A stretch of DNA of 25,891 nt from a virus: the UHGV virus genome UHGV-1543656. One strand, written 5' to 3'. The stretch's first letter is position 1; every line of letters begins with the position of its first letter. Made by a program: the position numbers and the translations under genes. Shown here piece by piece: positions 404-16,325 of this stretch. Below the pieces are notes generated by a model. The model made no database searches, had not been told where the DNA came from, and worked only from the letters and a program-made list of their open reading frames with translations.

Positions 404-415
404 GGTCTAAATACA

Positions 416-754: not shown

Positions 755-789
755 AGTTGATTCGGTTGTTCTAGGAATCAACCTCATAG
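755..789. repeat. Inverted copy of the 23-bp repeat, extended 5' by agttgattcggtt
   Basis: tgttctaggaatcaacctcatag is the exact reverse complement of 416-438. The related copy at 1173-1204 shares both ends (agttgattcggtt ... aacctcatag). Confidence 0.7.
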
Positions 790-1519
790 TTACCTTGTCA
801 AATCTTCGTAGTCCCTTCTTAAAAAATCACTTACAGACACCTTAATATCTATACAGATTTCATGTAGAACACGATTAGTGCGTAAAACAGCTATTATGTT
901 AAAAACGTACTGTATATGTATCAGTACTGATTTATAAGGGTTTTATGTATTTGAAGATAAGAGGCTATACAGCACCTTGAGAGCATGTCTTGTAAGTCAT
1001 TGATACATAAGGTCACAGAAGTTTGTGTCTGTTAAAGAGAAAACTGGGGAGGACTTCACAGGACTATAAAATGTTACAGCTATTGATAGGTTAAATCTTC
1101 TTGATAGATGCTGTGAAATGTGATGAAGGTTTTTTTGAGGTGGAGCTAACAGATGCTATGAAGAAAGTCAATAGTTGATTCGGTTTATCGAATAAACCTC
1201 ATAGATATTTTAAAATTCTGCAAAGGGGGTCACATAGCTGGTGTGACGGGTACTTAGCAGCTACAGACATCTGTCAGATATTTTCGAAGTTTTTTAGAAG
1301 GGGAATTTGAAGAGGGGCTACTACGATTTTATAAAAATTTTCAGAGTCTGAAAAGTTACTGTACAGATTTAATACAGATATCTTTAAAGTATCTGTAAAA
1401 ACTTTTAAGATAAAAGATAGATATCCCAGAAAGGATATCCGTTTAAAAAACCTGTTAAGTATCTCTTAAAAGAGAGTAAACCTTGTCAAGAGTGATTGCA
1501 ATAAAAAATTTTATTTCTT

Positions 1520-2182
1520 ATGTCAATTGAGCATATTTTAATCGGGAAGCATCATGGTGGTTCTGATGACTGGCGTACACCGTATCGTTTATTTCGTAAC
1601 CTGCATCGTGAATTTGGTTTTTCGATGGATGGTGCTGCAACTAAGCATGACGCATTGCTACCACGGTTCACCGATGATATCCACAATCAGTCATGGGTTG
1701 GTGAAAAGGTATTCTGTAACCCACCATACAGCGATATTCCGTCGTTCCTCTTAAAAGCGTCTGAATCAGATTTAGCGGTATTCCTGATACCGTACCGACC
1801 CCACACCACATACTGGCTTAAGCACATCTTCACAAACCCGCTTTGCCATGAAATCCGTATTCTTCATCGCGCAGTTAAATACCTTCCACCAGCAGGGCAT
1901 AACGGGCTTACTACTAGGTCACCGTTTGCTGCTGCAGTCGTTGTTTTTAAAAAAGAATCACGCAGGCATGAAATTACGCAGATGGTTTGCTGTGCTGACA
2001 CGCTATTACCGTTAACCATCATTAACCGTGGTGGACTAAGAGGAAGACCCACCATTTACCCACCTGAGACGCTCGACAGCTTCATAAAGCTATACAGGCA
2101 AGGAAAACCCATTAAGTGCATTGCAGATGCTCTCAGAATGCCTCTGAGCACGTCATACAGGATTGCTCAAAGGTTGGGCTAA
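1520..2182 (+). CDS. Phage-type N6-adenine DNA methyltransferase (Dam family) with C-terminal HTH
   Basis: DDWRTPYRLF...EFGFSMDGAAT...ALLPRF...FCNPPYS matches the catalytic NPPY motif and the upstream pattern of phage Dam methyltransferases. C-terminus IKCIADALRMPLSTSYRIAQRL looks like a resolvase-type HTH. Confidence 0.75.
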   Translation: MSIEHILIGKHHGGSDDWRTPYRLFRNLHREFGFSMDGAATKHDALLPRFTDDIHNQSWVGEKVFCNPPYSDIPSFLLKASESDLAVFLIPYRPHTTYWLKHIFTNPLCHEIRILHRAVKYLPPAGHNGLTTRSPFAAAVVVFKKESRRHEITQMVCCADTLLPLTIINRGGLRGRPTIYPPETLDSFIKLYRQGKPIKCIADALRMPLSTSYRIAQRLG

Positions 2183-2565
2183 AATTCTCATAAATATGGT
2201 CATTTACAAGACAGGCGATTCAGATATTAAGAAGTATTCCTGTGAACAATAAATGACCAATCAGTAATTATTCTGTGAAATAATTGTTGCAATTTATAAT
2301 CACACATGGTATAGTTTCATAGTGGGCTGATAAAAGAACTCAGAACATTAAGAGGTTACAACGTTGGGAGGCGTCAGGGTATTGACGGATTTTCACGGCC
2401 TCTTATTCAATCAAGGCTTTTCCTTTTGCTGTTAATACTCGCGTAATCACTTAGATTTCTGGGTTCCTTTATCAGTCCATCTTCTAATTAATTCACTCCC
2501 TCTGGGGTTGGTCACTATACGTGGTCAGCCCTTTCTTTGTTTTATTTTTAAAAAGGAAAATATAA

Positions 2566-3527
2566 TGGAAAAATTTCACATGTTTGATGACCGTATTTAT
2601 CAGATGACTAATGGCGTTAAAGCTGCCGACCGTATTATTTACACTGTCATGTTGAATGAACAAAAGTTTTATCACGATAAGGGGCAATATTATACCCCTT
2701 CATATGCTCATCTTGGTCAGTATGCTGGAATCACAAGAACATCCGTGATTGCATGTATGAAACGACTTGAGGCACATGGTTTAATCAAGAAAACTAACGT
2801 TGCAAGCAATCAGTGTGTTATTAAAGTTTATTCACTTGATGAAGTACCGGAAGTTTTAACAGAGCTTACAGCTAAGGAAGCCAGAAAGGCAAAGCTGGAG
2901 TCTAAAGTTACTCAGTCAGTCAAGAAAGATGACCCACTGAGTCAAAATTCTTTACCCACTGAGTTAAAATTTTTTACTCAGTCAGTCAAAATCTTTGACA
3001 CGTATAATAACAGTAATAACAAGAAAGAACTTATTAATAACAATAAAGAAGATGACTTTGAAGAAGAATCTCTTAAGAAGGGAGCTTCGCTCTGTGATTC
3101 ACATGAATGTGATTCTCTTGATATTGAAGAGGCTATTAAAGAGACTGTTAAAACATCTGACTTAGATGACCTTGATAGTGAAGCTACTAAAGAGGCTGTT
3201 AAAAAGGAAGATAAAATCTCTGATGTGAATGAAGTTAGTGACCAGCAAGATACACCTTGCCGCCTCGAATCAACTGATGATGAATTACCGGATGTTGACC
3301 TTGATGATGAAGAAGACCCTGAAGAGGAATTGAAACGTGAACAGCGTAAAGCAGAAATTAAAGAAAGATTCAGAAAGGCTAAGCTAAAGAACAGAATTGA
3401 TGAACTTGATGACTTTGATGATAGTGACGATGATGACTTTTCTTTCACACCAAAAAAGAAAACCCACACTGAACCGAAGAAAGAAAAAGTGAAAGTAAGA
3501 CGTATTTATGCTGGAGGTATGCGCTAA
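2566..3527 (+). CDS. Winged-helix DNA-binding protein (replication-initiator or regulator-like) with long acidic low-complexity C-terminal region
   Basis: Track ORF 2508..3527; start moved to the in-frame ATG at 2566 (MEKFHMF), which has an AAGGA-like RBS. N-terminus ...AGITRTSVIACMKRLEAHGLIKK resembles a wHTH. C-terminal ~180 aa are D/E-rich with K-rich stretches. Confidence 0.45.
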
Positions 3528-3817
3528 TGAAAGAATTTCACGGTGAAAAACGATACAAAGATTACCTGTTAAAGCGTTACAGCATTTCTCGTGAGGGTCA
3601 CCTTATGAAGGATACTTATGGGGAGGTTTACCGGATTCGACCGAAGAAAGAAGGGAGGGATTATTATTTCGTCGATGGTGTGACAGATTTAAAGATTGAC
3701 GCTTTGAGGTTTGCAGTGCTGTATCATTATGATATCTGGGATTCAGTCCACCAGCTACGATTAAAAGACGGTGACCCCGGTAATCTGAGGGCCACCAATA
3801 TCATCACAAAACGTTAG
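3527..3817 (+). CDS. Hypothetical protein, possibly HNH_3-like nuclease fold
   Basis: Start overlaps the upstream stop, suggesting translational coupling. YYFVDGV...VHQLRLKDGDPGNLRATN weakly resembles the HNH_3 / NUMOD-type pattern. Low certainty. Confidence 0.35.
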   Translation: MKEFHGEKRYKDYLLKRYSISREGHLMKDTYGEVYRIRPKKEGRDYYFVDGVTDLKIDALRFAVLYHYDIWDSVHQLRLKDGDPGNLRATNIITKR

Positions 3818-4071
3818 TTTGTTTTACCATCATCAATCGTAATTGTGATTTCATATTTGAAAAGCTTAATGCTGAAATTGAATCGTGTACTTTTGGCGAT
3901 AATCATTTTTAAAAGCTGATACACCAGAAGCACCAGAAACACAAAGCAACCTAAGCTTGCGAATCTGTGAGATTCAGCAATTGTTTCAAGAAAACCCATT
4001 AACTCCCCTTATTTATCAAAGGGAATGACCTGTATCAGCCCCTATAACCATATTAACATGTAAATGAGTTG

Positions 4072-4100
4072 TTGACAATATGTTAAATATATGTTAAGAT
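4072..4100 (+). promoter_or_regulatory. Sigma70-like promoter with a direct-repeat operator in the spacer
   Basis: TTGACA (4072-4077), 17-nt spacer, TAAGAT (4095-4100). The spacer carries the direct repeat atatgttaa / atatgttaa. Followed by RBS TAAGGAG (4121-4127) and ATG at 4136. Confidence 0.5.
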
Positions 4101-4135
4101 TGTAGTATGAGTAAGAGATTTAAGGAGATTTTACA

Positions 4136-4426
4136 ATGACTCACACAGTTACACGCCTTTTGCCAGAGGCATTTGAACGACTGGCAGCAATCAAAGCTAA
4201 ATATCCCGATATGAAGCACACAGCGCTTGTTGGAGAGCTTTTAAAAGAGTCGGTATCCCTGACCCCTTTCGATAACGTTAAGGGTGTTGCAGAGGGTTCT
4301 AAGGCCATCAGAATCACAACGGGCCAACTGGAACTACTCAAAGCACAGTCCGCAGTAGCAGGTTGCTCAATGATTCAGGTGTTGAGTGCTAAGGTCCATC
4401 AACTGGCGGATAAATTGGAGGTTTAA
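4136..4426 (+). CDS. Small regulator, ribbon-helix-helix-like
   Basis: Strong SD TAAGGAG. N-terminus TRLLPEAFERLAAIKAKYPDMKHTALVGELLKESV fits the beta-strand plus two helices pattern of RHH (CopG/Arc) proteins. Confidence 0.45.
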   Translation: MTHTVTRLLPEAFERLAAIKAKYPDMKHTALVGELLKESVSLTPFDNVKGVAEGSKAIRITTGQLELLKAQSAVAGCSMIQVLSAKVHQLADKLEV

Positions 4427-4647
4427 TGTGTTACAGGTTCCAATATTCCACACTTGGCAGCCACCTAATCAGACAGAATTTAGCAGATGCTGAATTTGAA
4501 GATGTGACCCTCAAAGCAAACAAACGATTAAAACCCTCTCAAATCCACCAGCTTAAACACGAATTAAAGCCACTGGTAATACTCGACTATAACGACCCTG
4601 AACAGCTTGAGCAGGGAATTAAGCTTATTTCTGAATGGGGTGCTTGA
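4426..4647 (+). CDS. Hypothetical protein
   Basis: ATG overlaps the upstream stop (TAATG); GGAGG sits 4 nt upstream. Confidence 0.5.
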   Translation: MCYRFQYSTLGSHLIRQNLADAEFEDVTLKANKRLKPSQIHQLKHELKPLVILDYNDPEQLEQGIKLISEWGA

Positions 4648-4862
4648 TGAAAACTATCACAGTACAACTTCAGACTAATAAAGCATTTCGTTATTTTGAA
4701 AACTTGCTTGAGTTATACGAAGGATGGGGAAGCATCCACGGCAAAGATGATATCTATCTTCACTTGTCAGCCCCTAACTATTCTCTGAAGGCTCCGGTTA
4801 AGCAAAGCTGGTTAAAAGACTACGGTCACCAGATGGGGCTATTAGTCTCAGACTTGAGCTAA
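4647..4862 (+). CDS. Hypothetical protein
   Basis: Track ORF 4635..4862; start moved to the in-frame ATG at about 4647 (MKTITVQ), where the start and the upstream stop overlap. Confidence 0.45.
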   Translation: MKTITVQLQTNKAFRYFENLLELYEGWGSIHGKDDIYLHLSAPNYSLKAPVKQSWLKDYGHQMGLLVSDLS

Positions 4863-5008
4863 AAACAGTAAAACATATCTCTCAGGCTTTACCAGACGAA
4901 TTCTAAGCGATTTTAAGCCCCTAATCAGGGTAACTTAGGGAATCGCCTTAAGTGGTCTAAAAAAGGGGTTAAAACGTCTTAGAATGCGATACAGGAAGGA
5001 TTTTAAAA

Positions 5009-5314
5009 ATGAATTATTCAATGCAAGTTATGGTTGACCAAGAAACTATGAATTGGCTTAATGACCTGAACAGGTCGGGCTTTAATATCTATTTCATGCA
5101 TTGTTTTGAAGCGTCAACGTATATTGACAAGCATATAATCAACGAAATTAAACTTGGTGACTTTGTTCATAAACTGGAAGTAACAGACCCAGACTACAAG
5201 AGATTTATCACAAGCGAATGCAACCGACTTGATTTAAGCCCGGAGCAATTATTGAAGCTGAATGTATTCTTGACCTATCAGAATGAATTAAACCCTTACA
5301 GTGAGGTGATGTAA
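5009..5314 (+). CDS. Hypothetical protein
   Basis: Track ORF with GGAAGGA-like RBS upstream. Confidence 0.5.
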   Translation: MNYSMQVMVDQETMNWLNDLNRSGFNIYFMHCFEASTYIDKHIINEIKLGDFVHKLEVTDPDYKRFITSECNRLDLSPEQLLKLNVFLTYQNELNPYSEVM

Positions 5315-5391
5315 TGACACTCGTTATTCTCTGGACGGTTTTAGGGCTATTTGTTGGTTGCTGGGTAGGTAATACGGTAAATAAGAATTAA
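5314..5391 (+). CDS. 25-aa hydrophobic peptide (MTLVILWTVLGLFVGCWVGNTVNKN), small membrane peptide
   Basis: Below the track length cut-off. ATG overlaps the upstream stop (TAATG) and has a GAGGTGA RBS 4 nt upstream. One predicted transmembrane helix with a polar tail. Confidence 0.45.
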   Translation: MTLVILWTVLGLFVGCWVGNTVNKN

Positions 5392-5415
5392 TGTTACCAA
5401 TCTGTTAAAAAGCTG

Positions 5416-5444
5416 TTGACAAATAACCTTAAGCATGACATAAT
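5416..5444 (+). promoter_or_regulatory. Sigma70-like promoter (TTGACA-17-CATAAT)
   Basis: TTGACA at 5416-5421 and CATAAT at 5439-5444 with a 17-nt spacer. Confidence 0.4.
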
Positions 5445-5450
5445 TTTAAT

Positions 5451-5645
5451 TATAGAGAGAATTGCTCTCTTATTTCTTTCAACAATTCCATCTACATCTA
5501 GGGATAGTTATTCTGAAAGGTGCAATGCTTTTCGCTACATGGCCTCTTATATAACCTGAGAGGTCATCTCGAAAAGTGCTTAATCATTCATTCATTGAAC
5601 CCTTTACAGCTTTGCCCTAATCATGATTAGGGCTTTCTTTAAGAG
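5451..5645 (+). ncRNA. Candidate small non-coding RNA, promoter to terminator with no ORF
   Basis: Starts just downstream of the promoter above. 5' hairpin agagag-aattg-ctctct at 5454-5470. Ends at the terminator 5614-5640. Longest internal ORF is under 10 codons. Confidence 0.25.
5614..5640 (+). terminator. Rho-independent terminator
   Basis: Perfect 20-bp palindrome gccctaatca/tgattagggc followed by TTTCTTT. Confidence 0.65.
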
Positions 5646-5886
5646 TTTTTAAACAGAACTTTTAAAGAAAGTTTTTCCTGAAACTTCGTTAACGTTATAA
5701 AGCAAACCTCCAAAGCCCTTCACAGATAAGGATGATTCCATGAATATCCGAATCACCTATGTTTAGGGCTTTTTCAGCTTTTAAAAAGCATACTTGGCAA
5801 ACCGCCTTTTAAGTCTCTTCTAAGTTTAGATAGGCTGTCAGGTGTGCTTTTTAAAAACTGAATATTACTTAGAAGAGGAAAATGAA

Positions 5887-6594
5887 ATGGAAAATCTATA
5901 TATTAACGGTAAAAAGATTGATAGCTTCGGTGACTGGTCACCACAGACTGAACATCCAGCTATCGCTATTCAGCGCAAAGAGCACGATGAAAGAATTGCA
6001 CTTGAGCAAGAGTTAAAGATGTCACCAAAGGAAATCATCTTTGTGACTCCTGAACCTCAAGAGATGCCTGATGTATGCAAAACTGAATCATTACTTGAGC
6101 TTGAGCGTGAATATTACCCACTACTGAAAGCACAAAGAATTAAACTTGATATTGCTTACGATGCGGTTAAGAACTTCGAAGAAACCTCGAAACCTTCAGA
6201 ATATGATATTGCTTACGAGATTAAGTCAAACCCGTTTATCTATTATGAAGGAAACTTTAATGATGGTTTTGGTACAGCGATTGAAGACGTTCCTAAAGTT
6301 CTTCAAAGTATCCCTGAAGGGTTCCGGTTAATTGATGTCAGACAAGCATTAAGGGGTTCTGGTCAATTTATTTTGACGACTGATAAAACAGATGAAGAGA
6401 TTCTTCAGTTAGCTGAAGCTAATTTGACTAAGCATTATTCCGGTAAACTGGATAAGTTAAAGCAAAAGCTTAAAAAAGAACTTGATAGCATGAAAGCGAT
6501 TATTAGTGACTATGAAACGCAGAAGAAGGTTGCTATGCAGGCTGATATTGAGCAGTTAACGAAGATTTCTCAGAAATACAGCAAAGCACTTTGA
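5887..6594 (+). CDS. Hypothetical protein
   Basis: Track ORF 5842..6594; start moved to the ATG at 5887 (MENLYING), which has an AGAGGAAA RBS. Confidence 0.55.
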   Translation: MENLYINGKKIDSFGDWSPQTEHPAIAIQRKEHDERIALEQELKMSPKEIIFVTPEPQEMPDVCKTESLLELEREYYPLLKAQRIKLDIAYDAVKNFEETSKPSEYDIAYEIKSNPFIYYEGNFNDGFGTAIEDVPKVLQSIPEGFRLIDVRQALRGSGQFILTTDKTDEEILQLAEANLTKHYSGKLDKLKQKLKKELDSMKAIISDYETQKKVAMQADIEQLTKISQKYSKAL

Positions 6595-6617
6595 TTATGA
6601 ATTAAAAGAGGTGATTA

Positions 6618-6827
6618 ATGTTTGAAGAACGTTTAGAGACTATTCGGTCTGTTTGTGAAAACTTAAAGTTACAAACTAAGCCAGCCTTAAGAATTAAAAC
6701 CAAACATCAAATTATCACCTCACGCAAACCAAAAACACGCAAGATTCCAAAGTGGTGTATCGACCGTATCCCTTCCGATGCTCAAATTATAGGTGAAACG
6801 GAACTACATTATCTTGTCAGGCATTAA
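6618..6827 (+). CDS. Small basic hypothetical protein
   Basis: Strong RBS AGAGGTGA just upstream of the ATG. Confidence 0.5.
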   Translation: MFEERLETIRSVCENLKLQTKPALRIKTKHQIITSRKPKTRKIPKWCIDRIPSDAQIIGETELHYLVRH

Positions 6828-6876
6828 AAAAGATTGGTTGGGTGTATGAGATAGGTTCTATCGAATCTATAACACG

Positions 6877-6918
6877 GGGAGAGATTATCGATATTATTCG
6901 GTAGTTTCTCCCTTTTTT
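6877..6918 (+). terminator. Terminator-like hairpin followed by a T6 run
   Basis: gggaga ... tctccc then tttttt. The loop is long, so this is uncertain. Confidence 0.35.
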
Positions 6919-6925
6919 GTATGTG

Positions 6926-6996
6926 TGCTACGTGAAATCTTCTGAACAGATATACCCACCAAAAATTATTTTTTACGTAGCTCACGCTTAACAGAG
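6926..6996 (+). promoter_or_regulatory. Conserved 71-nt cis-element, copy A, upstream of the tape-measure-domain gene
   Basis: Terminal blocks tgctacgtgaaatct and cacgcttaacagag are identical to copy B at 9071-9141, with the same 57-nt offset between blocks. Internal blocks atacccac and ttacgta are shared. Confidence 0.55.
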
Positions 6997-7010
6997 GTGA
7001 AATATGAACA

Positions 7011-9059
7011 ATGGCACAATTTAAAGTTGATAGTTTTATCGTTGAGCTAGGCTTCAGCGAGAACGTTATTAAGGGCTTGCAAAGAGTTGAAAAGGCAGCT
7101 TTGCAGTCAGCACAAAGAATTGAACGTAATTTGAATAGAGCGTTTAAGGTCGATACCAAGCAACTTGACAGCAATCTGACAAGTTCTTTAGGGCAACTTG
7201 AAAGGAAGTTTAATAAGACCTTTGACAAGATTGAGCAGCGTCTTAAAAACACTAGAGCGTTTAAGATTAAAACGGAAATTGAGGATACTTTAAAGCCACT
7301 TAGACAGCCAAGACAGCCACGAATTAGCGGCAACAGAGCAATCACAGCGGCTTATTCAGCGAATATGTCTAAGCTGAAAGGTCTTAACCCAATTGTCGAG
7401 AAATACATTAAGAGTCAGTTTTACGCATTAAGTAGTAAATCCAAGACACTTGGAAACGAAGCTTTTAATCGTGAGTTAGCAAAGTTAAATCAAAATCTAC
7501 GTGAAACACTTTCTAAGTTTAACAAGACCACCAGCAAAAATAATCACAGTGAAAATGCTTCAAATGGTTTAGATGTACTAGCTTCAAGTGCAATTAAAGC
7601 GGGTACGGCTATTTACACTTTTCAAAGTGCTTTGGCAGCTTATCAGCGAGTAATGGAAATTGGTTTACAGCGTGCAAGTGCTGAACGTTCAATTGATTTC
7701 GTATTTGATAAAGATGCAGGTCAGGTAAAAGAGTTCACAAAGTCATTAGCTCAAACAACGGGTTTAGATATCGCTGAACTGCAATCACAGTTTGCTGGTT
7801 TCGGTGCTTCAGCTAAAGAGTCTATGGGTATTCAAGGTTCTGAAGAACTTTTTAGAAGTATGATTGGCTATTCTCGTCTGATGGGTCGAAGTGAAGAAGA
7901 GATTAAGCGAGCACTGACAGCATTATCACAGATGGCTGGTAAGGGTCAGGTTATGGCTGAAGAGCTTAAGGGGCAACTAGCTGAAGCTGTTCCTGGTATG
8001 GTTCAGGTATTCGCTAAAGCAACCGGAAAGACTGAACAGGAATTATTTGATGCCATGAAGAAGGGGGCTTTAAAATCTGCCGATACTCTTCAGAAGGTCA
8101 CTCAGGAACTGAATAGACAAATCACCGCTAAAGGTGGCTGGAAAGCTATTTCAGAAAGTACACAGGCACAATTAGGGAACCTGAAAAACTCTTGGAATAC
8201 CACGCTTGATAGTATCTTCAGAGGTTCTGAAAGTGGTCTGCAAGATTTTACAAGAAGCTTAACAACGCTTTTAAACGCTCTTGGTGGAAGTGGTAAAAGT
8301 CTTGGTGAATCTCTTGGTAGCTTGATGACTGATATGTCACATGGTGTCGATAGTCTGGCCGATATTAGTTACAAGGTGCGAGCGTTCTTTGATGAGGTGA
8401 CATTAGCTTATCGTGGTTTAACCGATGAACAAAAGAAAGTTGTTGATGCTTTAGGTTCTGGCTTGATTAATAGTTTAAAAGTCTTGGCTGGTGTTATTGC
8501 TGTAAATAAAGTTGTTGGTGTAACCAGAAGTATTTACGGGCTTATGACTGCTATCACAAGATTAGGTCAGGTTGCTGATACTACAGCGGATAACGTGAAT
8601 AGAAAGAATGGGAAACCATCAAGACTGAATCTTGGGAATATGCTATTAGCTGGTAGCGCTCTCTATGCAGGTTATGAAAGACTAGCCTCTACACCTGAAC
8701 GAATGGAAGCACAAGCTAAATTACCAGAGTTAGCTAAAGAATCTGGACTTAAGCCAGTATTTACTATGGACGATGTGAAAGGTTGGTTTAATAGTGCAGC
8801 TATGAATCTTGCTAACTTCCAGCATCCAGAATTAATCACCATGAGACAAGATGCGGCATTAACGAATACGGATATCCAAAGCCTGAGAGATGAAATTAGT
8901 GCTTTGAGCAAACGTATTCAGGAGCCTGTGAAAGTTTCACTTGGTGGTGAAGTTGCCATTAAACCAGATGAAACCAGCTTTATGACCTTTAGCAGTAATA
9001 TCTACGACCAATACGCAGAAGCTACGCTATTAAGTTCATCATTCCCAGAAGATGATTGA
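7011..9059 (+). CDS. Protein with phage tail tape-measure-type domain
   Basis: 682 aa. Central segment SEEEIKRALTALSQMAGKGQVMAEELKGQLAEAVPGMVQVFAKATGKTEQELFDAMKKGALKSADTLQKV matches the tape-measure domain signature as I recall it. N-terminal part is predicted coiled coil. Confidence 0.55.
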   Translation: MAQFKVDSFIVELGFSENVIKGLQRVEKAALQSAQRIERNLNRAFKVDTKQLDSNLTSSLGQLERKFNKTFDKIEQRLKNTRAFKIKTEIEDTLKPLRQPRQPRISGNRAITAAYSANMSKLKGLNPIVEKYIKSQFYALSSKSKTLGNEAFNRELAKLNQNLRETLSKFNKTTSKNNHSENASNGLDVLASSAIKAGTAIYTFQSALAAYQRVMEIGLQRASAERSIDFVFDKDAGQVKEFTKSLAQTTGLDIAELQSQFAGFGASAKESMGIQGSEELFRSMIGYSRLMGRSEEEIKRALTALSQMAGKGQVMAEELKGQLAEAVPGMVQVFAKATGKTEQELFDAMKKGALKSADTLQKVTQELNRQITAKGGWKAISESTQAQLGNLKNSWNTTLDSIFRGSESGLQDFTRSLTTLLNALGGSGKSLGESLGSLMTDMSHGVDSLADISYKVRAFFDEVTLAYRGLTDEQKKVVDALGSGLINSLKVLAGVIAVNKVVGVTRSIYGLMTAITRLGQVADTTADNVNRKNGKPSRLNLGNMLLAGSALYAGYERLASTPERMEAQAKLPELAKESGLKPVFTMDDVKGWFNSAAMNLANFQHPELITMRQDAALTNTDIQSLRDEISALSKRIQEPVKVSLGGEVAIKPDETSFMTFSSNIYDQYAEATLLSSSFPEDD

Positions 9060-9070
9060 TAATAGTCGAA

Positions 9071-9141
9071 TGCTACGTGAAATCTGTAAAGCTAATACCC
9101 ACACTGAAAAATAGAATTTACGTACAACACGCTTAACAGAG
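9071..9141 (+). promoter_or_regulatory. Conserved 71-nt cis-element, copy B, upstream of the 264-aa gene
   Basis: See copy A. The 11-mer GCTACGTGAAA also occurs at 726-736. Confidence 0.55.
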
Positions 9142-9216
9142 AAAACACTTATATATCAAAGGCTTGGTTAAAAATGATTAAAATACACTAAGCCTTTGAA
9201 ATCAAAGGGGAATTTA

Positions 9217-9990
9217 ATGATTTACTCTAACCAAATCAAATATAGTGGCAAAGACGGCATCTATTTCCACTTAAGAGATAATGTAGATGCCTTCTTAACC
9301 TTATCAGCAACTGAAAACATGGAATTTGATAGTCCTATGCAGGTGACTACACAGAACATGCAATCAGGACAAACCGTTACAGATAATGTGCAAAGAGCAC
9401 CCAGAACAATCACTATTAGTGGTGTCGTTGTAGTTGGCTATGAAGGAAGCTTATTATTAACTCGTCAGGGTCAATTAGTAGAAAACTTCATCGACACTCT
9501 TGAAAGCTGGCGTGACCAGAAACAGATTATTTCGGTCATCTGTAAAGACGGAATTAAAATTGACGATTCCATTATTACGAGTTTTAAAGCCTCTAAAGAT
9601 GTGGGGATTTCAAACGGTCTAAGAATCCAGCTAACTTTTCAGGAAATTAACTTCAAAGCTATTGTTGGTCAGACTGATATTTCTGCTGCAACTGGAAAGA
9701 CTGCTACCACGAATGATGGTGGTGCAACTTCTAAGAAGAACACTGGTAACACTACGACAAGTCTAGGTAATGGTATGTTGCTGTGTCAGGAGCTATATAA
9801 TCGCTCTACGAGTGAACTCACTAATGAGCAACTTCAAGCCCGTATCAATTGTGGTAAAAGTGTCAAAGTTGAGAATGGAAAAAGCACCTTCTCAGATGCC
9901 GCTAATGCGCAAGCTTCAAAGGTGCTTAATAATGCTGGTACAGGTAGTACTTTGAAGAAATTTTCTGTGAATCCTAACAAGCGATTCTGA
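9217..9990 (+). CDS. Hypothetical protein, possibly virion or tail-tip associated
   Basis: Track ORF 9196..9990; start moved to the ATG at 9217 (MIYSNQ), which has an AAGGGG RBS. Beta-rich N-terminal half and a Thr/Gly/Asn-rich linker. Functional guess rests only on its position after the tape-measure-domain gene. Confidence 0.4.
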
Positions 9991-10004
9991 CGATAGAATC
10001 TCAA

Positions 10005-11528
10005 CTATATGATAACCTCATCAACATCTATCAACCCCCTCTCAGTGACTTCAGAAAGCGACTGTATAGCCTCTGTAACGTCCTCTGAGGGGGTTTCTGT
10101 TATTGGTAGGGTGATTGACTTACTATTGTGAAAAGTTACTTTACAGCGACGTTTAGCAGTATTTAAAATGACCTCTTTAACAGCACTTTTGATTATCAGT
10201 TGTGCTTCAATCCTTCCCGCCTTTGTAGTCAAGTCACAATCAGACAAACAACCAACATCAATAGATTTAAGGCGTTGTGTCTCCTTCTCGATATCCGCAT
10301 CAACCTGTGATAGCTCACCTTTTAACTGTTTTAGTTTGCTGGTAATAGCGGACAAGTCTTCAATTTCAAGTGATAGCTGTACCAGCTTTTCAATATTGCT
10401 TGAGATGTGTTCACGGTGTAGCTTCAGTGTGTCTATGGTATTCGTCATATCGCTATCAAATCGGTCTATACGGGATAGCAGGGCAAGCAATGTACCATCG
10501 GTTTGCTTACGTGAAAGTCCTTTAGCACTACAACGGTTTTCATTACGAAGAGGACAACGATAAATCCCGTTTCTTGTATCGCTAAAGCCTGTGATAATCA
10601 AAGCATGACCACATTCAGAACAACGGATAACACCTTTGAAAAGATTCACACTCAATGGTTTATCTGAAGCAGGCTTTCTTCCATAACGAGAATATGATAG
10701 TTGCTGGACTTTGTAGAAATCAGTCTCAGGGATGATAGGGGGGAAATAACCAGCTATCTCCTCACAGCCTTTAGGTGTGAAGTAACCAATTACAGAGCGA
10801 TTTTTCAGAAGGTCTTGCACTGAGGTTTGACCAAACTTACCTGCTTTGTACTGGTTAAGTGTCTGGTGACCTTCATCATTAAGAGTCCTGACAATCTCCC
10901 AAATAGACTTACCCTCTAACCGTAATTGAAAGCACCTCTTCACAGTTTCTACCTTCTCAGGTATCACAGAGAAGGTCTTACGGTCATCATTAAGCTTAAG
11001 CCATGCAGGACAACGCTTATAAATCTTGATACCGGCTTTAGCAGCTTCTTTCTTTGCATCCCATGCAGCTTGGATACGTTCAGATTTACGCAAACTCTCC
11101 TCATGCGACCGCTGCATTATCAAAATGCTTTTAATCAGAGCTAACGGGTCTTTTAAGCTTTCCTTTGTGTAATGTTCACCATCGGACAAGGTGACCACAT
11201 CTACACCAGAGCGAAGAATGTTTCTGAGTAGCTCACTTGCTTGGTCTACATCTTGACGTGACAGACGGTCAAGAGATTCTATCAAGAGCGTATCACCAGC
11301 TTTAACAAGCCCTTTCTCGATAGCGGTTAAAAAGTCACCTAAGCCACCTTTCAAGTGCTTACCAGTGAACCCACTCACCCCCAAATCACGAAAAGATAAA
11401 TCTTGGTCAAGGTAGTACTCAGGATGAGCCTTAAGCCAGTCATTAACCATCTTAGACTGTCGGCGTAATGAATCACCTCGGGATTGCTTCTCAGATGAAA
11501 ACCTGATGTAAGAAATGGCACGTTTCAT
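10005..11528 (-). CDS. Large serine recombinase (integrase)
   Basis: N-terminal resolvase-type catalytic domain (YIRFSSEKQ with the catalytic Ser, then SLDRLSR). Followed by a recombinase domain, a Cys-rich zinc ribbon (CSECGH...YRC) and a C-terminal coiled coil. Sits next to attR. Confidence 0.9.
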   Translation of the reverse strand: MKRAISYIRFSSEKQSRGDSLRRQSKMVNDWLKAHPEYYLDQDLSFRDLGVSGFTGKHLKGGLGDFLTAIEKGLVKAGDTLLIESLDRLSRQDVDQASELLRNILRSGVDVVTLSDGEHYTKESLKDPLALIKSILIMQRSHEESLRKSERIQAAWDAKKEAAKAGIKIYKRCPAWLKLNDDRKTFSVIPEKVETVKRCFQLRLEGKSIWEIVRTLNDEGHQTLNQYKAGKFGQTSVQDLLKNRSVIGYFTPKGCEEIAGYFPPIIPETDFYKVQQLSYSRYGRKPASDKPLSVNLFKGVIRCSECGHALIITGFSDTRNGIYRCPLRNENRCSAKGLSRKQTDGTLLALLSRIDRFDSDMTNTIDTLKLHREHISSNIEKLVQLSLEIEDLSAITSKLKQLKGELSQVDADIEKETQRLKSIDVGCLSDCDLTTKAGRIEAQLIIKSAVKEVILNTAKRRCKVTFHNSKSITLPITETPSEDVTEAIQSLSEVTERGLIDVDEVII

Positions 11529-11578
11529 TGTTCACCTCAAAACTGATGCCCTAGATTGTATCGTTTTAGATGGTGTAT

Positions 11579-11980
11579 TTAAACGTGTCTAATAAAAATC
11601 ACCCGATTAACGCCGCGCTGATGTAAACCGCGATTAAGCGTTTGTTCCTCTTCCCCTTTGGCGAAAAACTGTGGATGGCGGACTTCCACCCCATAATTAA
11701 ATTCACCGGGAAGAGAATCGAGAAAATGCCAAAGCGCAGGCAGCTCCCGTGGGCCGAATGTGGCAGGCAGTTGCAGCCAGTATTGTCCAATGCGCGGAGC
11801 CAACGGTGACATGCGGGTCAAAAATTCAGTCACTAAATCATCGCAATGCCGTAATGCTGCCTGATGCGAAATGGTCGCCGGAAACTTAAAACAGAAGCGG
11901 AAGTCATCTGTGGTCTGCTCACGCCAGCGCAGGACAACCTCGGGTTTCGGCAGGGCATAAAGCGTGGTGTTACCCTCCAC
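11579..11980 (-). pseudogene. yecE: 5'-proximal fragment of the host DUF72-family gene, truncated at its 5' end by the prophage and at its 3' end by the serine-integrase element
   Basis: Track ORF starts at a GTG. The in-frame upstream sequence has no ATG back to a stop at about 12038. NCVEGNTTLYALP matches the conserved N-terminal motif of DUF72 proteins. It continues in frame into 53..403 once the insertion is removed. Confidence 0.6.
11595..11601. repeat. attR core (AAAATCA) of the serine-integrase element
   Basis: Junction read aataAAAATCAcccgatt: element sequence to the left, host sequence to the right. Confidence 0.6.
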
Positions 11981-12006: not shown

Positions 12007-13320
12007 TTAACTTACTGATTTTAATAAGCCTCTGGTGTCACTTTGGTGACTATGGGGCATCATTGGGACATAATCTGTCAGCTTCTGATTCAGCATTGCG
12101 ATCTGTTCTGCATTGCTGTCAGTCATCCATGCTCCGTATACATTGAATACCATCTGGGCACTTGCATGGCCCATCTGGCTGGCAATGAAGCTTGGGTTTG
12201 CTCCGGCAGATAATGACCAGCACGCATAAGTGTGTCGTGACTGGTATGCCTTTCGATGCCTGATCCCTGCACGCTTAATGGCTGTTTCCCATGAGTCACC
12301 TACAGAATCGACTTTGTAGACAAAACCTACCTGTTCGCTTTTTCTAACCACTTGAGGGTTAAACACGAAAGTACATTCATGGTTCACTGAACGTCCATAT
12401 TCACGTAGTTGCACCTTGATGTTGTACTGCTTACCCAGTCTTGTCATTTCAGCCTGATTTTTCAGGACACTGATAGCGGGCTGGATAAGGTGCACAACCC
12501 TGTTTGTGCTTGCTTCAGTTTTCGGTAGAGTGAACTCACCAAGTTTCGTATAATTGCGCCTGATGGTAATTGTTCCTGCCTTCAGATCGATATCTTCCCA
12601 GGCCAGGGAGACCAGTTCACCGTGACGCATTCCTGTGTACACAGCCAATGACCACAGGTTTTTCGTCTGCTGATGTCGGCAAGCATCTATCAGGCGAATA
12701 AATTCGTCACGAGTTAGCGGATCTGGCTCTGCCCTGGCTCTTTTAAGAGGCTTAATTCCCTGGAAGGGATTTGCTTCTAAGTAACCGTGATCTGCAGCAA
12801 ACTGAAACATTCCAGCGATTGTCGTCATGTAATAATTTACAGTAACGACGCTCCGTCCTTTTGCTGCTGCTTTGTTTTTCGTTGAATTCTGATACCCGGT
12901 CAGCAAATCTTTCCTGATATACAGCAATTCCTCTTTGGTTACCGATGACACCAGTTTACTGCCTCCAATTTTCGGAACCATCGTTCTTGCAACGGATTCA
13001 TAGCGATTGAATGCATTTGCAGAGATTTCCATTCGTTTCAGATCCAGCCACTTTTCTTCAAGTTCCTTCACCGTAATTTCTTTTTTACTTACCCCAAAAG
13101 CCTGAAGGTTGGGGGAGTCAGGGAACTGTGCAGCATAATCAAAGCTTCCTGTGCGGATGGCAAAACATACTGATGTCCGCAGTTCCCCGGCGATCTTCCT
13201 GTTCTTGGCAGTGTCAGGGACACCAAGATTTTCCCTGACACGTTTACCTTTAAAATTAAACCAGATGCGTAATGTGCCGCCGTGGTTTTCGACGCCTGTT
13301 GGATATTTGACTTTATCCAT
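12007..13320 (-). CDS. int: Tyrosine-type phage integrase
   Basis: C-terminal catalytic region HRKAYQSRHTYACWSL...GHASAQMVFNVYGAWM carries the R..HxxR..Y signature. Located at the prophage end next to xis. Confidence 0.9.
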   Translation of the reverse strand: MDKVKYPTGVENHGGTLRIWFNFKGKRVRENLGVPDTAKNRKIAGELRTSVCFAIRTGSFDYAAQFPDSPNLQAFGVSKKEITVKELEEKWLDLKRMEISANAFNRYESVARTMVPKIGGSKLVSSVTKEELLYIRKDLLTGYQNSTKNKAAAKGRSVVTVNYYMTTIAGMFQFAADHGYLEANPFQGIKPLKRARAEPDPLTRDEFIRLIDACRHQQTKNLWSLAVYTGMRHGELVSLAWEDIDLKAGTITIRRNYTKLGEFTLPKTEASTNRVVHLIQPAISVLKNQAEMTRLGKQYNIKVQLREYGRSVNHECTFVFNPQVVRKSEQVGFVYKVDSVGDSWETAIKRAGIRHRKAYQSRHTYACWSLSAGANPSFIASQMGHASAQMVFNVYGAWMTDSNAEQIAMLNQKLTDYVPMMPHSHQSDTRGLLKSVS

Positions 13321-13375
13321 CGATACCTCCAGACGCCCAAGAGCGATACGAGCTTACATATTTCATGATATTAAA

Positions 13376-13612
13376 TCACCTGGGTTGTTTGTTTTTCATT
13401 GAGGCGACCCAGGCATCTATTGCTTTTCTGTTATACATACATTCACTGGAAGGCTTTGGATTACCGTCTGGTGATACGTGAATATACTCTCTTCCAACCA
13501 TCCAGCATTCTTTCCGGGCCCGAAGAATTGTGCCTGGTTTGAGCCCGGTAATTGCGATAAGAACGCTTTCACAAACCCATTCATTGGGAGCCAGTTGAAT
13601 CACATTGCCCAT
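13376..13612 (-). CDS. xis: Excisionase-like protein
   Basis: 78 aa, immediately upstream of int. WVCESVLIAITGLKPGTILRARKECWMVGREY resembles the small excisionase family of E. coli lambdoid prophages. Confidence 0.7.
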   Translation of the reverse strand: MGNVIQLAPNEWVCESVLIAITGLKPGTILRARKECWMVGREYIHVSPDGNPKPSSECMYNRKAIDAWVASMKNKQPR

Positions 13613-13620
13613 GTATTACC

Positions 13621-13767
13621 TCACACAACACTCAGCCCACGGCAGTGGCACCACACTTCAAACATTCGTTTCACAATTTCACGACAGTAGAAGCCGTCAA
13701 CATCTCGCGTCAGGTCATAGCGATTGCCGTAACGCTGGCGCACCCATAGCTCAAACGCTTTATTCAT
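13621..13767 (-). CDS. 48-aa Cys-rich small protein (MNKAFELWVRQRYGNRYDLTRDVDGFYCREIVKRMFEVWCHCRGLSVV)
   Basis: Below the track cut-off. AAGGAAG RBS 6 nt upstream. Its stop overlaps the xis RBS (GTGTGAGGTAATACATG). Confidence 0.4.
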   Translation of the reverse strand: MNKAFELWVRQRYGNRYDLTRDVDGFYCREIVKRMFEVWCHCRGLSVV

Positions 13768-13770
13768 TCT

Positions 13771-14010
13771 TTACTTCCTTTTCATGGCCCGTAATTTTTT
13801 CAGATGAGCCTCCTGCTCTGTTTCTGCCAGAATTTGTCGGTATTCCTGGTGATCAATCCGTTCAAACAGTTCATTGAAATCGTTTATTTTTACTGACTGT
13901 GTTCGCCCATCAATTCTTCTGTACAACACAGTGTTGTTTATGCAGCGAATAATTATTACCGGGTAACCGGCACTGTCGGTATACAGTTGTCCCTGATTAA
14001 TCAAAGCGAA
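13771..14010 (-). CDS. Hypothetical protein
   Basis: Track ORF 13771..14136; start moved to the internal ATG (MFALINQ) with an AGGAG RBS, which removes the overlap with the upstream gene. Confidence 0.5.
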   Translation of the reverse strand, partial: FALINQGQLYTDSAGYPVIIIRCINNTVLYRRIDGRTQSVKINDFNELFERIDHQEYRQILAETEQEAHLKKLRAMKRK

Positions 14011-14044
14011 CATTTTTTCTCCTGCTCTCTGAATAGTGAGAACT

Positions 14045-14350
14045 TCAGAGCCGTATGTTTGTAGCGGGTTCAATACTGATAATTTCTGCTGAGATAAGCA
14101 TCCCGGCAAGCCAGAGCTCTCCGGACAGGTCTTCATCCTGGCATGTCAGTTCGCCAATATTAATGGTGGCCATGATATCTGTTTCCCCTGTACGCTCATC
14201 CTCGACTTCTTCATAAGGCAGCGTTGCGTACAGGCTTTCAATAGCGCAACTGATAACATCGAGTCCGGTCAGGTTGCCACCGACAGTGACTTCGAATGTT
14301 TCGCGGTATTCCCATTGCCCGAAAGTTAATCGAACGGTTTGTTTCGCCAT
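14045..14350 (-). CDS. Acidic hypothetical protein
   Basis: Track ORF 14045..14386; start is likely the internal ATG at 14350 (MAKQTV). Confidence 0.45.
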   Translation of the reverse strand: MAKQTVRLTFGQWEYRETFEVTVGGNLTGLDVISCAIESLYATLPYEEVEDERTGETDIMATINIGELTCQDEDLSGELWLAGMLISAEIISIEPATNIRL

Positions 14351-14457
14351 GCGTCCGCATGACGTCAGATTTGGGTCATAGTTCATTATTTGCGGTTGAG
14401 TATTATGAGTGTTTATCTGCTTTTCCCTTAGCCCGACGGCCTGCCGGGCATATTAAG

Positions 14458-15285
14458 TTATTTAACCTGGATAAATGGTGTATTGGCACCGCTGGTCATG
14501 TATTGCGGCAGCGTGCCGTTCCATTTATTGATGGCTTCCAGCTCCATAACACCGGGGTTCTGACGCAGAGCTTCACCGCGTAAACGAATAGCATCGGCTT
14601 CAGCCTGGGCTTTTGTGCGAATCGCATCAGCCTGTCCGGCAGCTTCCGCGCGCAACATGTTGGCTTCCGCTTCGCGCTGTTTTACTTCCTGCTCGCGTTG
14701 CAGAGTTTTCTGGTTCGCCGTGACTTTGGCATTAATGCTGTCGATAACAGTAGGCGGGTACTCCGGCTTACCCACATATGAGAGGCTTATTACCTGAATA
14801 CCGATGGGCGTCATTTCTTCCTGAATGTCTTTAAGAGCTGCATCCAGCAGCTCAGACTTGCCGCCGTCGATAAATTTGTCGGTGGTCATTTTGCTGGCCA
14901 GTCGGTTGAGTGCGTCGGCTATCTTCTGGCGCAGGTCGGTGTCGGTAATGTCGTCCACGCCTTTGCGGTAGGTCTGAAAGACTGTGGTAACTTTGGATGG
15001 ATCAACCTTGTAGGCTACTCCGATGTGGTAACCAATGGTTGTTCCATCGCTCATCTGGAAACTGAATGGATCATCGTAGGTCTTCATCTGCTTAAAGGTC
15101 GGGAAGATATAAACTTCAGTGTTCCAGCCTGTCCAGTAGCGACCAACACCGACCACTTCACCGACGCCTTTGTCGTCGCCAAGTTTGTTGACTTTGATGC
15201 CCACATTACCAGGCTCAACACGATCACAACCGACAAGGCCAATGGCAGGCAGAACAATGGCTAAAGAAAAAATAATTTTTTTCAT
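14458..15285 (-). CDS. SPFH/band-7 (prohibitin-family) lipoprotein
   Basis: Signal peptide with lipobox LVGC. SPFH-like core beginning VEPGNVGIKV, followed by an Ala/Glu/Arg-rich helical tail. AAGGA RBS. Confidence 0.75.
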   Translation of the reverse strand: MKKIIFSLAIVLPAIGLVGCDRVEPGNVGIKVNKLGDDKGVGEVVGVGRYWTGWNTEVYIFPTFKQMKTYDDPFSFQMSDGTTIGYHIGVAYKVDPSKVTTVFQTYRKGVDDITDTDLRQKIADALNRLASKMTTDKFIDGGKSELLDAALKDIQEEMTPIGIQVISLSYVGKPEYPPTVIDSINAKVTANQKTLQREQEVKQREAEANMLRAEAAGQADAIRTKAQAEADAIRLRGEALRQNPGVMELEAINKWNGTLPQYMTSGANTPFIQVK

Positions 15286-15470
15286 CTTTTATCCTTAGTG
15301 AAAGAAAGCCCCTTATAAATGGTATAAATACATGGCGGGGTTAGAAACGTCAGTGCAAAGCCAGAAATCACCGCTACCGTATCCTTCATTGATATCAGAA
15401 ACGGGACGAGCAATCCGTAAATACATGCGATAATTGCCAGTGATATAACTATTCTGAAATAAATGTTCAT
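15282..15470 (-). CDS. Small membrane protein (two predicted TM helices), translationally coupled to the SPFH gene
   Basis: AGGAGG RBS. Its stop overlaps the SPFH start codon (ATGA). Confidence 0.6.
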   Translation of the reverse strand: MNIYFRIVISLAIIACIYGLLVPFLISMKDTVAVISGFALTFLTPPCIYTIYKGLSFTKDKR

Positions 15471-15530
15471 GGTCCTCCTGCTGTATTCAGCTTGCCTTAT
15501 TTAATTGCGTCATGGTTAATTTCGTTTACG

Positions 15531-15923
15531 TCAGAATGGTTTTGTTGCCATCAGTTCGTAATATCCGGCGCTCCATGTGTCATATTTTCTGAACCATTTT
15601 TCTGTATACTGTTTCCTGGCGATGAGTCTGCGCAGTCGTCTGATTGTTCGCTGGTGTGCGCGGGTGTACTCTGTGGTTGATTCTCCACGTTTCCATATTT
15701 CATTCCCGTTGAAGATAAAACGCTTGTCAGGATGGCGTTGTCGGAATCCTGAACGTTCAAAAGCGCGGGTGGTCATAAAGAATGCCAGGTAACGAATTGC
15801 CGTTTTTCGAGTGAGGCATTTTTTTGTTCTTCCGTGATGTGTTACAAAAAATAACGGGCCGACGGGTGTATCATGTTTCTGTAATGCCTGGTCAATGGCG
15901 CTGGCGGTGCGGTTGTCGATCAT
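15531..15923 (-). CDS. Basic hypothetical protein
   Basis: Track ORF; Arg/Lys-rich C-terminal half; sits inside the leftward operon. Confidence 0.45.
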   Translation of the reverse strand: MIDNRTASAIDQALQKHDTPVGPLFFVTHHGRTKKCLTRKTAIRYLAFFMTTRAFERSGFRQRHPDKRFIFNGNEIWKRGESTTEYTRAHQRTIRRLRRLIARKQYTEKWFRKYDTWSAGYYELMATKPF

Positions 15924-16138
15924 TTCTTTATTTCTCCCGAATAACGTTCATGACTCATTATTTCCCAGTTCCGGCCGTCGTCTTTCGATAACAGCCGCCA
16001 GCGACGGTTAACCTTCAGACTGAGATATCCGTTGCGCTGTATCCGATGCGGGAATATACGTCGGCATCTGTACCGCCGCAGGACCAGCAACGCCTGCTGG
16101 TGGACCCACTCAGGAATTCGCGTTGCTGTTAATGTCAC
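15920..16138 (-). CDS. Hypothetical protein (uncertain)
   Basis: Stop overlaps the downstream start (ATGA). Arg-rich, and its 5' end overlaps the upstream gene. Confidence 0.3.
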   Translation of the reverse strand: MTLTATRIPEWVHQQALLVLRRYRCRRIFPHRIQRNGYLSLKVNRRWRLLSKDDGRNWEIMSHERYSGEIKK

Positions 16139-16325
16139 TGGTTTCCTCCTGAGCAGGTGCTGTTATCTGATACCCCGCTCTTTCTGCCAGCCATATGAAT
16201 GTATCCATGCTGGCAATCAGCTCTCCATCGCGGACTTTGCAGACATCTGTTACCTGGCCATTTTCAATTGTCATAACGATCTGCACTTTTTCGTGCACAA
16301 CAGATACAGGGGATAAATTAGCCAT
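16110..16325 (-). CDS. Hypothetical protein
   Basis: GGAGG RBS. Start overlaps the upstream stop (TGATG). Confidence 0.5.
   Translation of the reverse strand: MANLSPVSVVHEKVQIVMTIENGQVTDVCKVRDGELIASMDTFIWLAERAGYQITAPAQEETSDINSNANS

Follow-up and report, generated by a model that had tools for sequence, protein, structure and literature searches.

The stretch of 25,891 nucleotides catalogued as virus genome UHGV-1543656 (hereafter the window, meaning the whole stretch) was found to be Escherichia coli chromosome, 100% identical to strain JNEC-KY173, and to carry at positions 400-11594 a mobile island inserted in the gene yecE. Two of the genes of this island correspond to phage tail genes, one for a tape measure protein (TMP; open reading frame, ORF, 7011-9059) and one for a tube initiator (TI; ORF 9196/9217-9990). 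With a confidence somewhat better than even, the island is regarded as belonging to a hitherto undescribed family of Escherichia islands, integrative and self-replicating, which would parasitise Felix O1-like phages of the Ounavirinae and form chimeric tails with them, in the manner of the PLEs of Vibrio cholerae. That the TMP and TI act on the tail assembly of Ounavirinae is considered very probable, and the most likely use of the pair is to hijack or sabotage the assembly of Felix O1-type tails.

Two tail proteins and their phage counterparts

The two genes follow each other in the right half of the island, and the following features were distinguished within them.

7011-9059, + strand: predicted tape measure protein (TMP), 682 aa; phage-like in the first ~45 aa and in the C-terminal motif LLSSSFPE, island-specific in the remainder
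9217-9990, + strand: predicted tube initiator (TI), 257 aa, homologue of Bas63 gp18; the longest ORF runs from 9196 (264 aa)
9232-9775, + strand: TI segment with the tube-like N-domain and the Thr/Gly/Asn (T/G/N) linker; 94.7% DNA identity to Felixounavirus genomes
9776-9990, + strand: island-specific C-terminal extension of the TI; best phage identity 50.6%, 86-96% conserved among yecE-type islands

The 682-aa ORF exceeded the curated cut-offs of two tape-measure profiles, Pfam TMP_3 (PF20155; E 3.4e-20, 73 bits, cut-off 41) and TIGR02675 (E 1.8e-14, 53.8 bits, cut-off 21.35), and also matched PHROG 4036, 'tail length tape measure protein' (E 1.9e-77). It is homologous to gp17, the TMP of phage Bas63 whose structure has been solved (PDB 9ndy_F; E 2e-63), with residues 1-510 of the query and the C-terminal motif aligned. 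The original prediction, made from the sequence without database searches, had placed a tape-measure domain in this protein, and these matches bear it out; they argue that the ORF encodes a true tape measure protein. It is collinear with the TMPs of Felixounavirus phages over 100% of the query (tblastn), at ~28% identity over the full length, and no phage record was found with more than 60% identity to it. At the N-terminus, identity to phage skuden rises to 75% across the first 50 aligned residues, and the DNA of the gene start is 76-82% identical to that of various phages, a similarity that reaches ~23 nt upstream of the start codon. At the other end of the protein, the LLSSSFPE of the island corresponds to LLSSSYPE in the phages. 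The island TMP is 54-60 residues shorter than its phage counterparts (682 aa vs 736 aa in skuden and 742 aa in Bas63). Among islands, this protein is a patchwork with identities of 53-88%, and it is under purifying selection (dN/dS 0.30-0.36); the exact allele of the window is present on 630 contigs.

For the 264-aa ORF, matches to Pfam Dit_like (PF21821; E 2.8e-20, 73 bits, cut-off 24.2), to PHROG 3721 (E 3.2e-138) and to the Bas63 chain deposited as 'tube initiator protein gp018' (PDB 9ndy_A; E 1.9e-129) point to a tail-tube initiator, the homologue of gp18 of Felixounavirus Bas63. Translation likely starts at the ATG at 9217 (257 aa), which is preferred because of its GGGGA ribosome-binding site and the use of the same start in RefSeq; the TTG at 9196 is a less probable start. 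Virulent Felix O1-like phages share residues ~6-186 with a DNA identity of 94.7% and a protein identity of up to 100%, and many Felixounavirus genomes match the window at 9232-9775 with that DNA identity. Protein identity to skuden across residues ~31-180 amounts to 96-100% in each 30-residue window, and residues 11-198 are nearly identical to Bas63 gp18. Between the N-domain and its phage equivalent, 35 synonymous and four non-synonymous differences were counted (dN/dS 0.026). The Thr/Gly/Asn-rich stretch noted earlier in this protein is real and is common to the phage protein, residue for residue. For the last ~80 residues, the best identity was 50.6% among 255 matching records in a phage collection of 50,697 records. 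With these 80 residues at ≤50.6% to phage records, the island TI lacks the phage-type C-terminal baseplate arm; it has instead an arm that is conserved among the yecE-type islands. The earlier suggestion of a tail-tip or host-range protein was not upheld, as homology to Bas63 gp18 indicates a tube initiator, which sits on the baseplate hub and not at the tail tip, and a change of host range is consequently unsupported.

In the Bas63 virion the TI is a hexamer atop the trimeric hub, which it adapts to the six-fold tube; it consists of a tube-like fold and a C-terminal extension of ~100 residues running through the baseplate, and the C-terminal 25 residues of the TMP touch the hub and the spike (PMC12609058). 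Together with the hub, TMP and TI are the proteins that nucleate tail-tube polymerisation. The mosaic conservation of the island proteins follows the contact map of this solved virion. The parts kept phage-like or identical are the termini of the TMP and the tube-like domain of the TI, and the island-specific parts are the baseplate arm of the TI and the TMP body, which determines length and is ejected. Bas63 gp17 and gp18 (PDB 9ndy, PMC12609058) are direct homologues of the island proteins at the E-values given above, and the gene order, TMP then TI, is the same. They differ in that the Bas63 genes belong to a phage and the island genes to a bacterial chromosome, that the island TMP is 60 residues shorter at the low identity already mentioned, and that the C-terminal arm of the TI has been swapped for a sequence seen in no phage. 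The two genes abut in phages, whereas in islands they are separated by a spacer of 100-240 nt with a conserved palindromic element. Beyond TMP and TI, no tail or other phage homologues were found when all 13 island proteins were compared by tblastn with one complete Felixounavirus genome.

The TI N-domains of different islands have their nearest relatives in different Ounavirinae lineages. In the sister islands L003 and L004 this domain is far more diverged from skuden (dS >1), and that of L003 is closest (85%) to another subset of Ounavirinae. Set beside the near-identity found in the window, this points to recent and repeated exchange of the N-domain with phages, with the C-terminal arm remaining private to the islands, and the differing phage kin would fit a tracking of helpers. 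Between a phage and its presumed parasite, it is an unusually clean signature of gene conversion restricted to the interface. No co-variation of the TMP C-terminus with the TI C-terminal arm was seen among islands; L005 differs only in the TMP C-terminus and L004 only in the TI arm.

The island, its family and its candidate control signals

The limits of the island and its recombination functions are as follows.

393-399, unstranded: attL crossover core AAAATCA, left junction in yecE; 7-bp overlap of the flank alignments to the empty yecE of K-12
400-11594, + strand: whole island, 11,195 bp, GC 36-41%; from alignment to the empty K-12 yecE, with the same ends in the sister L003
10005-11528, - strand: predicted large serine recombinase (integrase), 507 aa; Pfam Resolvase 1.6e-20, Recombinase 8.6e-15, Zn_ribbon_recom 3.5e-7; PHROG 95 integrase 6.5e-77; A118 integrase in PDB
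11595-11601, unstranded: attR crossover core AAAATCA; from flank alignments to the empty K-12 yecE

The att sites are of the type used by large serine recombinases, with a 7-bp core, no long direct repeats and an attP of imperfect dyad symmetry, the last being expected for the recombinase encoded at 10005-11528. In the reconstructed attP, the imperfect inverted repeat GTGTATTTAAAC / GTCTAAATACAC surrounds the core, and the attP junction reads GTGTCTAATAAAAATCATCAAGGTCTAAATACAC. The statement that the element holds no other virion genes proved correct, since the other 11 island ORFs lack a match to any phage structural family in Pfam and PHROGs; virion, packaging and lysis families other than those of TMP and TI were likewise matched by no island ORF.

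The gene yecE is a known attachment site of Stx phages (PMC5592225), and in the window a lambdoid prophage (12007-25891) occupies the same gene. This prophage is a separate neighbour at a different yecE site, so that two unrelated elements stand in tandem; it begins ~390 bp from the right junction of the island with a tyrosine integrase (12007-13320, - strand) and an excisionase (13376-13612, - strand). It was considered as the owner or helper of TMP and TI and rejected, since att sites separate from those of the prophage bound the island and the sister island L003 lacks the prophage. The helper phage of the original prediction would thus be not this neighbour but, presumptively, a strictly virulent member of Felixounavirus/Ounavirinae.

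A related TMP-TI pair was found in 479 of 5,426 complete E. coli genomes (~9%), always on the chromosome, and no plasmid form was present among 72,556 PLSDB plasmid records. By name, proteins of the family occur in E. coli, E. albertii, E. fergusonii, Shigella and Salmonella, in the last two sporadically, and a pattern-limited search of the GTDB species representatives returned only E. albertii and one Escherichia sp. The relatives in IMG/VR are prophage-region calls from isolate genomes. The order common to sister islands comprises small ORFs, a gene for a protein of ~235 aa, one for ~70 aa, TMP, TI and a convergent serine recombinase, with a variable left arm that bears a methyltransferase, HNH/AP2 nuclease-like genes or small resolvases. 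In one variant island the recombinase is a different one (34% identity) and the insertion lies at yciI-tonB; the compact gene order of 11-12 kb recurs at two att sites with intact ends.

The attP junction was found once in a metagenome collection, on the 11,473-bp contig L019 (ERZ1090866 NODE_760), and was absent from IMG/VR. In this contig a related island is circularly permuted, with 82-97% identity in pieces, attP internal and no yecE flank, and it breaks at its own intragenic iterons, both ends lying in the initiator gene at the iteron block. Five contigs of 11.1-11.7 kb (L009, L010, L020, L024 and L026) were also considered as excised circles and were rejected, each being the integrated island plus k-1 flank bases on each side. 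Occupied and empty att sites coexist in the samples of those contigs, through either strain mixture or spontaneous excision.

Five candidate control signals were located upstream of the TMP and TI genes.

5416-5444, + strand: predicted sigma-70 promoter, TTGACA-17-CATAAT with TG, heading the leader of the 235aa-69aa-TMP-TI unit; invariant in five islands
5614-5633, + strand: predicted terminator hairpin of the leader, which would either end a small RNA (sRNA) or serve as an attenuator; preceded by a small hairpin at 5454-5470 and followed by a second terminator-like hairpin
6876-6913, + strand: predicted intrinsic terminator directly 5' of the TMP gene; 16-bp stem and T-run, kept in 19 of 19 island copies
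6926-6996, + strand: 70-nt element, copy 1, GCTACGTGAA-N33-TT(C/T)ACGTAGCTCACGCTTAACAGAG; upstream of the TMP gene
9071-9141, + strand: 70-nt element, copy 2; upstream of TI in every island examined

The leader 5416-5800 may be either an sRNA of ~170 nt or a terminator-gated leader of the 235aa-69aa-TMP-TI unit; no Rfam match was obtained in the island. Two stem pairs of the terminator at 6876-6913 are changed on both sides among the 19 copies. In several islands only 20-40 nt lie between this terminator and the ribosome-binding site of the TMP gene, which leaves no room for a promoter, and TMP expression in those islands must therefore come from read-through. The 70-nt element is built from a 10-bp inverted repeat, GCTACGTGAA...TTCACGTAGC, and a block CACGCTTAACAGAG; it precedes TMP in this island and in some others, and half-sites of it occur in the left non-coding region at 726-738 (+) and 855-867 (-). 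The element is probably an operator or a promoter. As a phage promoter it was rejected, the element being absent from phage skuden, its conserved blocks not being enriched there and the region having no phage DNA match. Taken as a whole, the promoter, the terminators and the 70-nt element suggest that the tail genes may stay silent until a signal, plausibly infection, relieves termination.

Proposed mechanism and alternative readings

If the island parasitises Felix O1-like phages, infection would be followed by excision of the island through its own serine recombinase, for which the phage would have to supply a directionality factor, none being recognisable in the island. The excised island would then replicate from its O-like initiator and origin, as its anatomy suggests, and transcription would pass the conserved terminators before the TMP gene by read-through. 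The island TMP would use phage factors by way of its phage-like N-terminus and dock on the phage hub and spike by its conserved C-terminal motif, and the island TI, seated on the phage hub, would prime the phage tube through its phage-identical N-domain, as the Bas63 structure suggests for both dockings. Chimeric tails would result, in which phage sheath, tube and baseplate surround an island core. At 1.5 Å per residue, the difference between 682 and 736-742 aa predicts that such tails would be ~9 nm shorter for this allele, and the altered TI arm would lie in their baseplate. By analogy with PLE11, they would equip island-containing particles and also divert or spoil the tail output of the phage.

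A private TMP/TI core that plugs into phage hubs is the simplest reading because the phage-facing surfaces have been kept phage-like and the rest is island-specific. The original prediction that the element supplies its own tape measure or tail protein to remodel a helper tail is therefore favoured, also in view of the PLE precedent, without the part that concerned host range, and the change of tail length that it proposed is plausible at the ~9 nm calculated above. A more specific proposal seems to us evenly poised between right and wrong: that this is the first E. coli satellite family of strictly virulent Ounavirinae, in which a 'tube-initiation cassette' of a private TMP and a chimeric TI would build satellite-specific tails via the phage hub and be kept compatible by recurrent gene conversion of the phage-contacting segments.

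Several observations weigh against parasitism of this kind. The TMP alleles of other islands range from 677 to 726 aa, so that no fixed change of tail length would characterise the family, and many island copies are interrupted by insertion sequences (IS), including in the TMP gene. The contig with the attP junction is a single one, at 6x coverage; its positions 11431-11463 on the locus + strand (bases 11-43 of the reverse complement) are a Nextera adapter, TCGTCGGCAGCGTCAGATGTGTATAAGAGACAG, an assembly artefact, and a tandem array could be an alternative source of its junction. The one phage genome examined (skuden) yielded neither a phage-like promoter nor a non-coding motif in common with the island. 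No phage tail assembly chaperone was recognised by sequence in the island, unlike in PLEs, and no capsid-size, packaging-signal or terminase-related function was found among the island ORFs, although 11 kb of DNA would have to be accommodated by a phage whose capsid holds a genome of 87 kb. Induction by phage, packaging and transfer are steps that we infer for the island.

The strongest competitor, unlikely but deserving attention, is that the island interferes with the phage and does nothing more. TMP and TI would be dominant-negative decoys that enter the tube-initiation complex of the phage by way of their conserved interfaces and lead to defective or dead-end tails; the clone would be protected without transduction of the island, which would move by other means or merely be inherited. 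Conservation of the phage-contacting parts with alteration of the rest is what a competitive poison needs, the island has no packaging or capsid function that could be found, and blocking tail assembly is a known strategy of satellites and prophages, as with Rta, Tai (PMC11364771) and Tab (PMC10884400). A poison does not, however, need a full-length TMP with both termini under purifying selection throughout, nor a replication module with an origin, and the excised circular form represented by contig L019 also speaks against it. No defence model in PADLOC-DB 2.0 fits TMP or TI; that database matched the island only at ORF 1520-2182, with its orphan methyltransferase model, and weakly at the recombinase, with its LmuB model (E 1.3e-4). 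In the sole tested system, that of the PLEs, the TMP and hub of the satellite become parts of its functional virions. The two roles coexist in PLEs, and the defensive half of the earlier hypothesis that the domain had been co-opted is retained in this form.

The other half of that hypothesis, a role outside the virion, is highly improbable because exactly the phage-contacting parts have been kept phage-like under strong purifying selection. It would have the TMP-like protein, with its hydrophobic segments, and the TI work at the cell envelope, for example by blocking the entry of Felix O1-like DNA (superinfection exclusion). Works cited in PMC12609058 give TMPs a part in delivering the genome across the envelope, and the middle region of the island TMP is very unlike that of the phage. 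Exclusion would nevertheless leave the phage-identical tube-like domain of the TI unexplained, and no signal peptide or exclusion-family match was seen; the conserved terminator 5' of TMP and the lack of promoter room in several islands also speak against constitutive expression.

The weakest reading, and one that can be given hardly any credence, is that TMP and TI are functionless remains of a once-complete Felix O1-like prophage or of a chance capture: the IS insertions in the TMP gene of many E. coli copies and the placement of such regions within predicted prophage stretches in IMG/VR would agree with decay, but Ounavirinae genomes have no lysogeny genes, the same compact order of 11-12 kb stands at two att sites with intact ends, the other island genes are without any phage homologues, and the dN/dS values (0.026 for the TI N-domain, ~0.3 for the TMP) together with the 630 contigs that carry the exact TMP allele argue against neutral substitution and against mostly frameshifted TMP/TI genes.

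Known satellites and the remaining island genes

For an island family that would insert its own tail core into Ounavirinae tails, as preferred here, the nearest parallel is offered by the PLEs. Their own TMP, tail chaperone and baseplate hub are 19-41% identical to those of ICP1; the first and the last of these displace the phage versions in PLE virions, whose tails are 10 nm shorter, and deletion of tmp lowers transduction by 96-99.9% (PMC11838301 = PMC12987554). Like the island, PLEs are chromosomal and have a large serine recombinase and their own replication initiator, and the partner is a strictly virulent myovirus, presumptively so for the island. Both have a TMP of their own, shorter than that of the phage, and one baseplate-core protein, each divergent, and both lack capsid, sheath and tube genes. 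The island is nevertheless not itself a PLE. PLEs pair Vibrio with ICP1 and the island pairs Escherichia with Ounavirinae; the PLE initiator is of the RepA_N type, whereas that of the island is O/DnaD-like and no RepA_N match was found in the island; and the baseplate protein of PLEs is the hub, 19-41% identical throughout, whereas that of the island is the tube initiator with a phage-identical N-domain. PDB searches with the initiator, the recombinase and the 235-aa protein, which cover only those PLE proteins present in PDB, gave no homology to PLEs. Tail remodelling by PLEs has been demonstrated on virions, whereas the island is known from its genes.

Predicted tmp genes have also been noted in Vibrio PLE-like elements and in some cf-PICIs (PMC12987554), where no element resembling this island is mentioned. 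The cf-PICIs share with the island the predicted tape measure gene carried by some of them, and differ from it in having a full capsid and packaging module and in stealing whole tails, the island being without a capsid or packaging gene. Judged by its gene content, the island is not a PICI, a cf-PICI or a P4-like element, because the marker genes are absent: AlpA, pri-rep, a tyrosine integrase, a capsid/packaging module and psu-delta-sid-alpha were matched by none of its ORFs in Pfam, PHROG and NCBIfam. PICMIs, minimalist satellites that depend on virulent vibriophages, reportedly have a tyrosine integrase and no homologues of virion proteins. They resemble the island in being small, in exploiting virulent phages and in having no capsid-remodelling genes (PMC10803314). 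Tai (PMC11364771), Tab (PMC10884400) and Rta (PMC12987554) act, like the agents proposed for the island, on tail assembly and are carried by mobile elements; in the available parts of these sources they are not presented as tail-protein homologues, whereas the island agents are homologues of tail-core proteins. Rta, which targets the phage TMP, has no detectable homologues (PMC12987554). A full-text literature search, not every journal being covered, returned neither a satellite of Felixounavirus/Ounavirinae nor a yecE element with a serine recombinase, and no satellite tape measures beyond those of PLE and cf-PICI.

Satellites that rebuild tails, and not capsids, were first demonstrated in 2025-2026 and only in the V. 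cholerae PLEs; a second, unrelated family, and this in the most thoroughly studied bacterium, would, if true, show that the strategy is a general one. The atomic structure of the Bas63 virion and the BASEL Felixounavirus phages make the reading of the island directly testable, and the chimeric TI, as a natural domain swap, could throw light on the selection of core components by the baseplate. Furthermore, Felix O1-like phages are used for typing, biocontrol and therapy in Salmonella and E. coli, and an island that is present in about one in eleven E. coli genomes could, if it acts on the tail assembly of these phages, affect efficacy and host-range predictions. If the proposed function is correct, the island would be a common, unrecognised determinant of the outcome of Felix O1-type infection, including that by therapeutic and biocontrol phages.

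The remaining features of the island to which a description could be given are listed below.

1520-2182, + strand: predicted Dam-type N6-adenine methyltransferase, orphan, with C-terminal helix-turn-helix (HTH), cargo of the variable left arm; Pfam Dam 7.4e-16, HTH_7 3e-4; PADLOC orphan methyltransferase; absent from L003-L005
2565-3527, + strand: predicted replication initiator with winged-helix N-terminus and acidic C-terminus; PHROG replication initiation / O-like 2e-11 to 4e-6; Pfam DnaD_N and HTH below cut-off
2905-2995, unstranded: putative lambda O/ori-type origin within the initiator gene, with iteron-like repeats and, after them, an AT-rich stretch; TTACTCAGTCAGTCAA x2 and ACCCACTGAGTyAAAAT x2 inverted
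5887-6594, + strand: conserved island core protein, 235 aa, helical with a long C-terminal coiled coil; 24-90% identity, in all sister islands
6618-6827, + strand: conserved basic core protein, 69 aa; 56-91% identity in sister islands, no family match

The rest of the island consists of several small ORFs without any family. The 235-aa protein had no match in Pfam, PHROG or PDB, and fold searches against PDB and BFVD, made from a poor AF2 model (pLDDT 61), gave nothing below E 0.05. NCBI labels this family 'transposase' in many genomes, despite the lack of such matches. The 235-aa and 69-aa proteins and a 138-aa protein of L020, all encoded upstream of TMP, were considered as tail chaperones and showed no sequence similarity to phage chaperones; for the 235-aa protein the model was too poor to judge by structure.

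The slot held in this island by the methyltransferase and the initiator is occupied in the left arms of sister islands by HNH_3+AP2 or HNH_3 homing-endonuclease-like genes and small serine resolvases (L003 5470-5994 and 8620-8907; L020 191-739; L024 577-1143). A strongly hydrophobic ORF of 25 aa (MTLVILWTVLGLFVGCWVGNTVNKN), whose nucleotide sequence is conserved in five islands, lies at 5314-5391 and overlaps the stop codon of the gene before it. At the left end of the island, a perfect 24-bp inverted repeat (415-438 and 767-790) brackets ~330 bp, a segment that may be a miniature mobile insertion; the left arm is absent from the sister L003, and a similar short palindromic insert lies near 5750.

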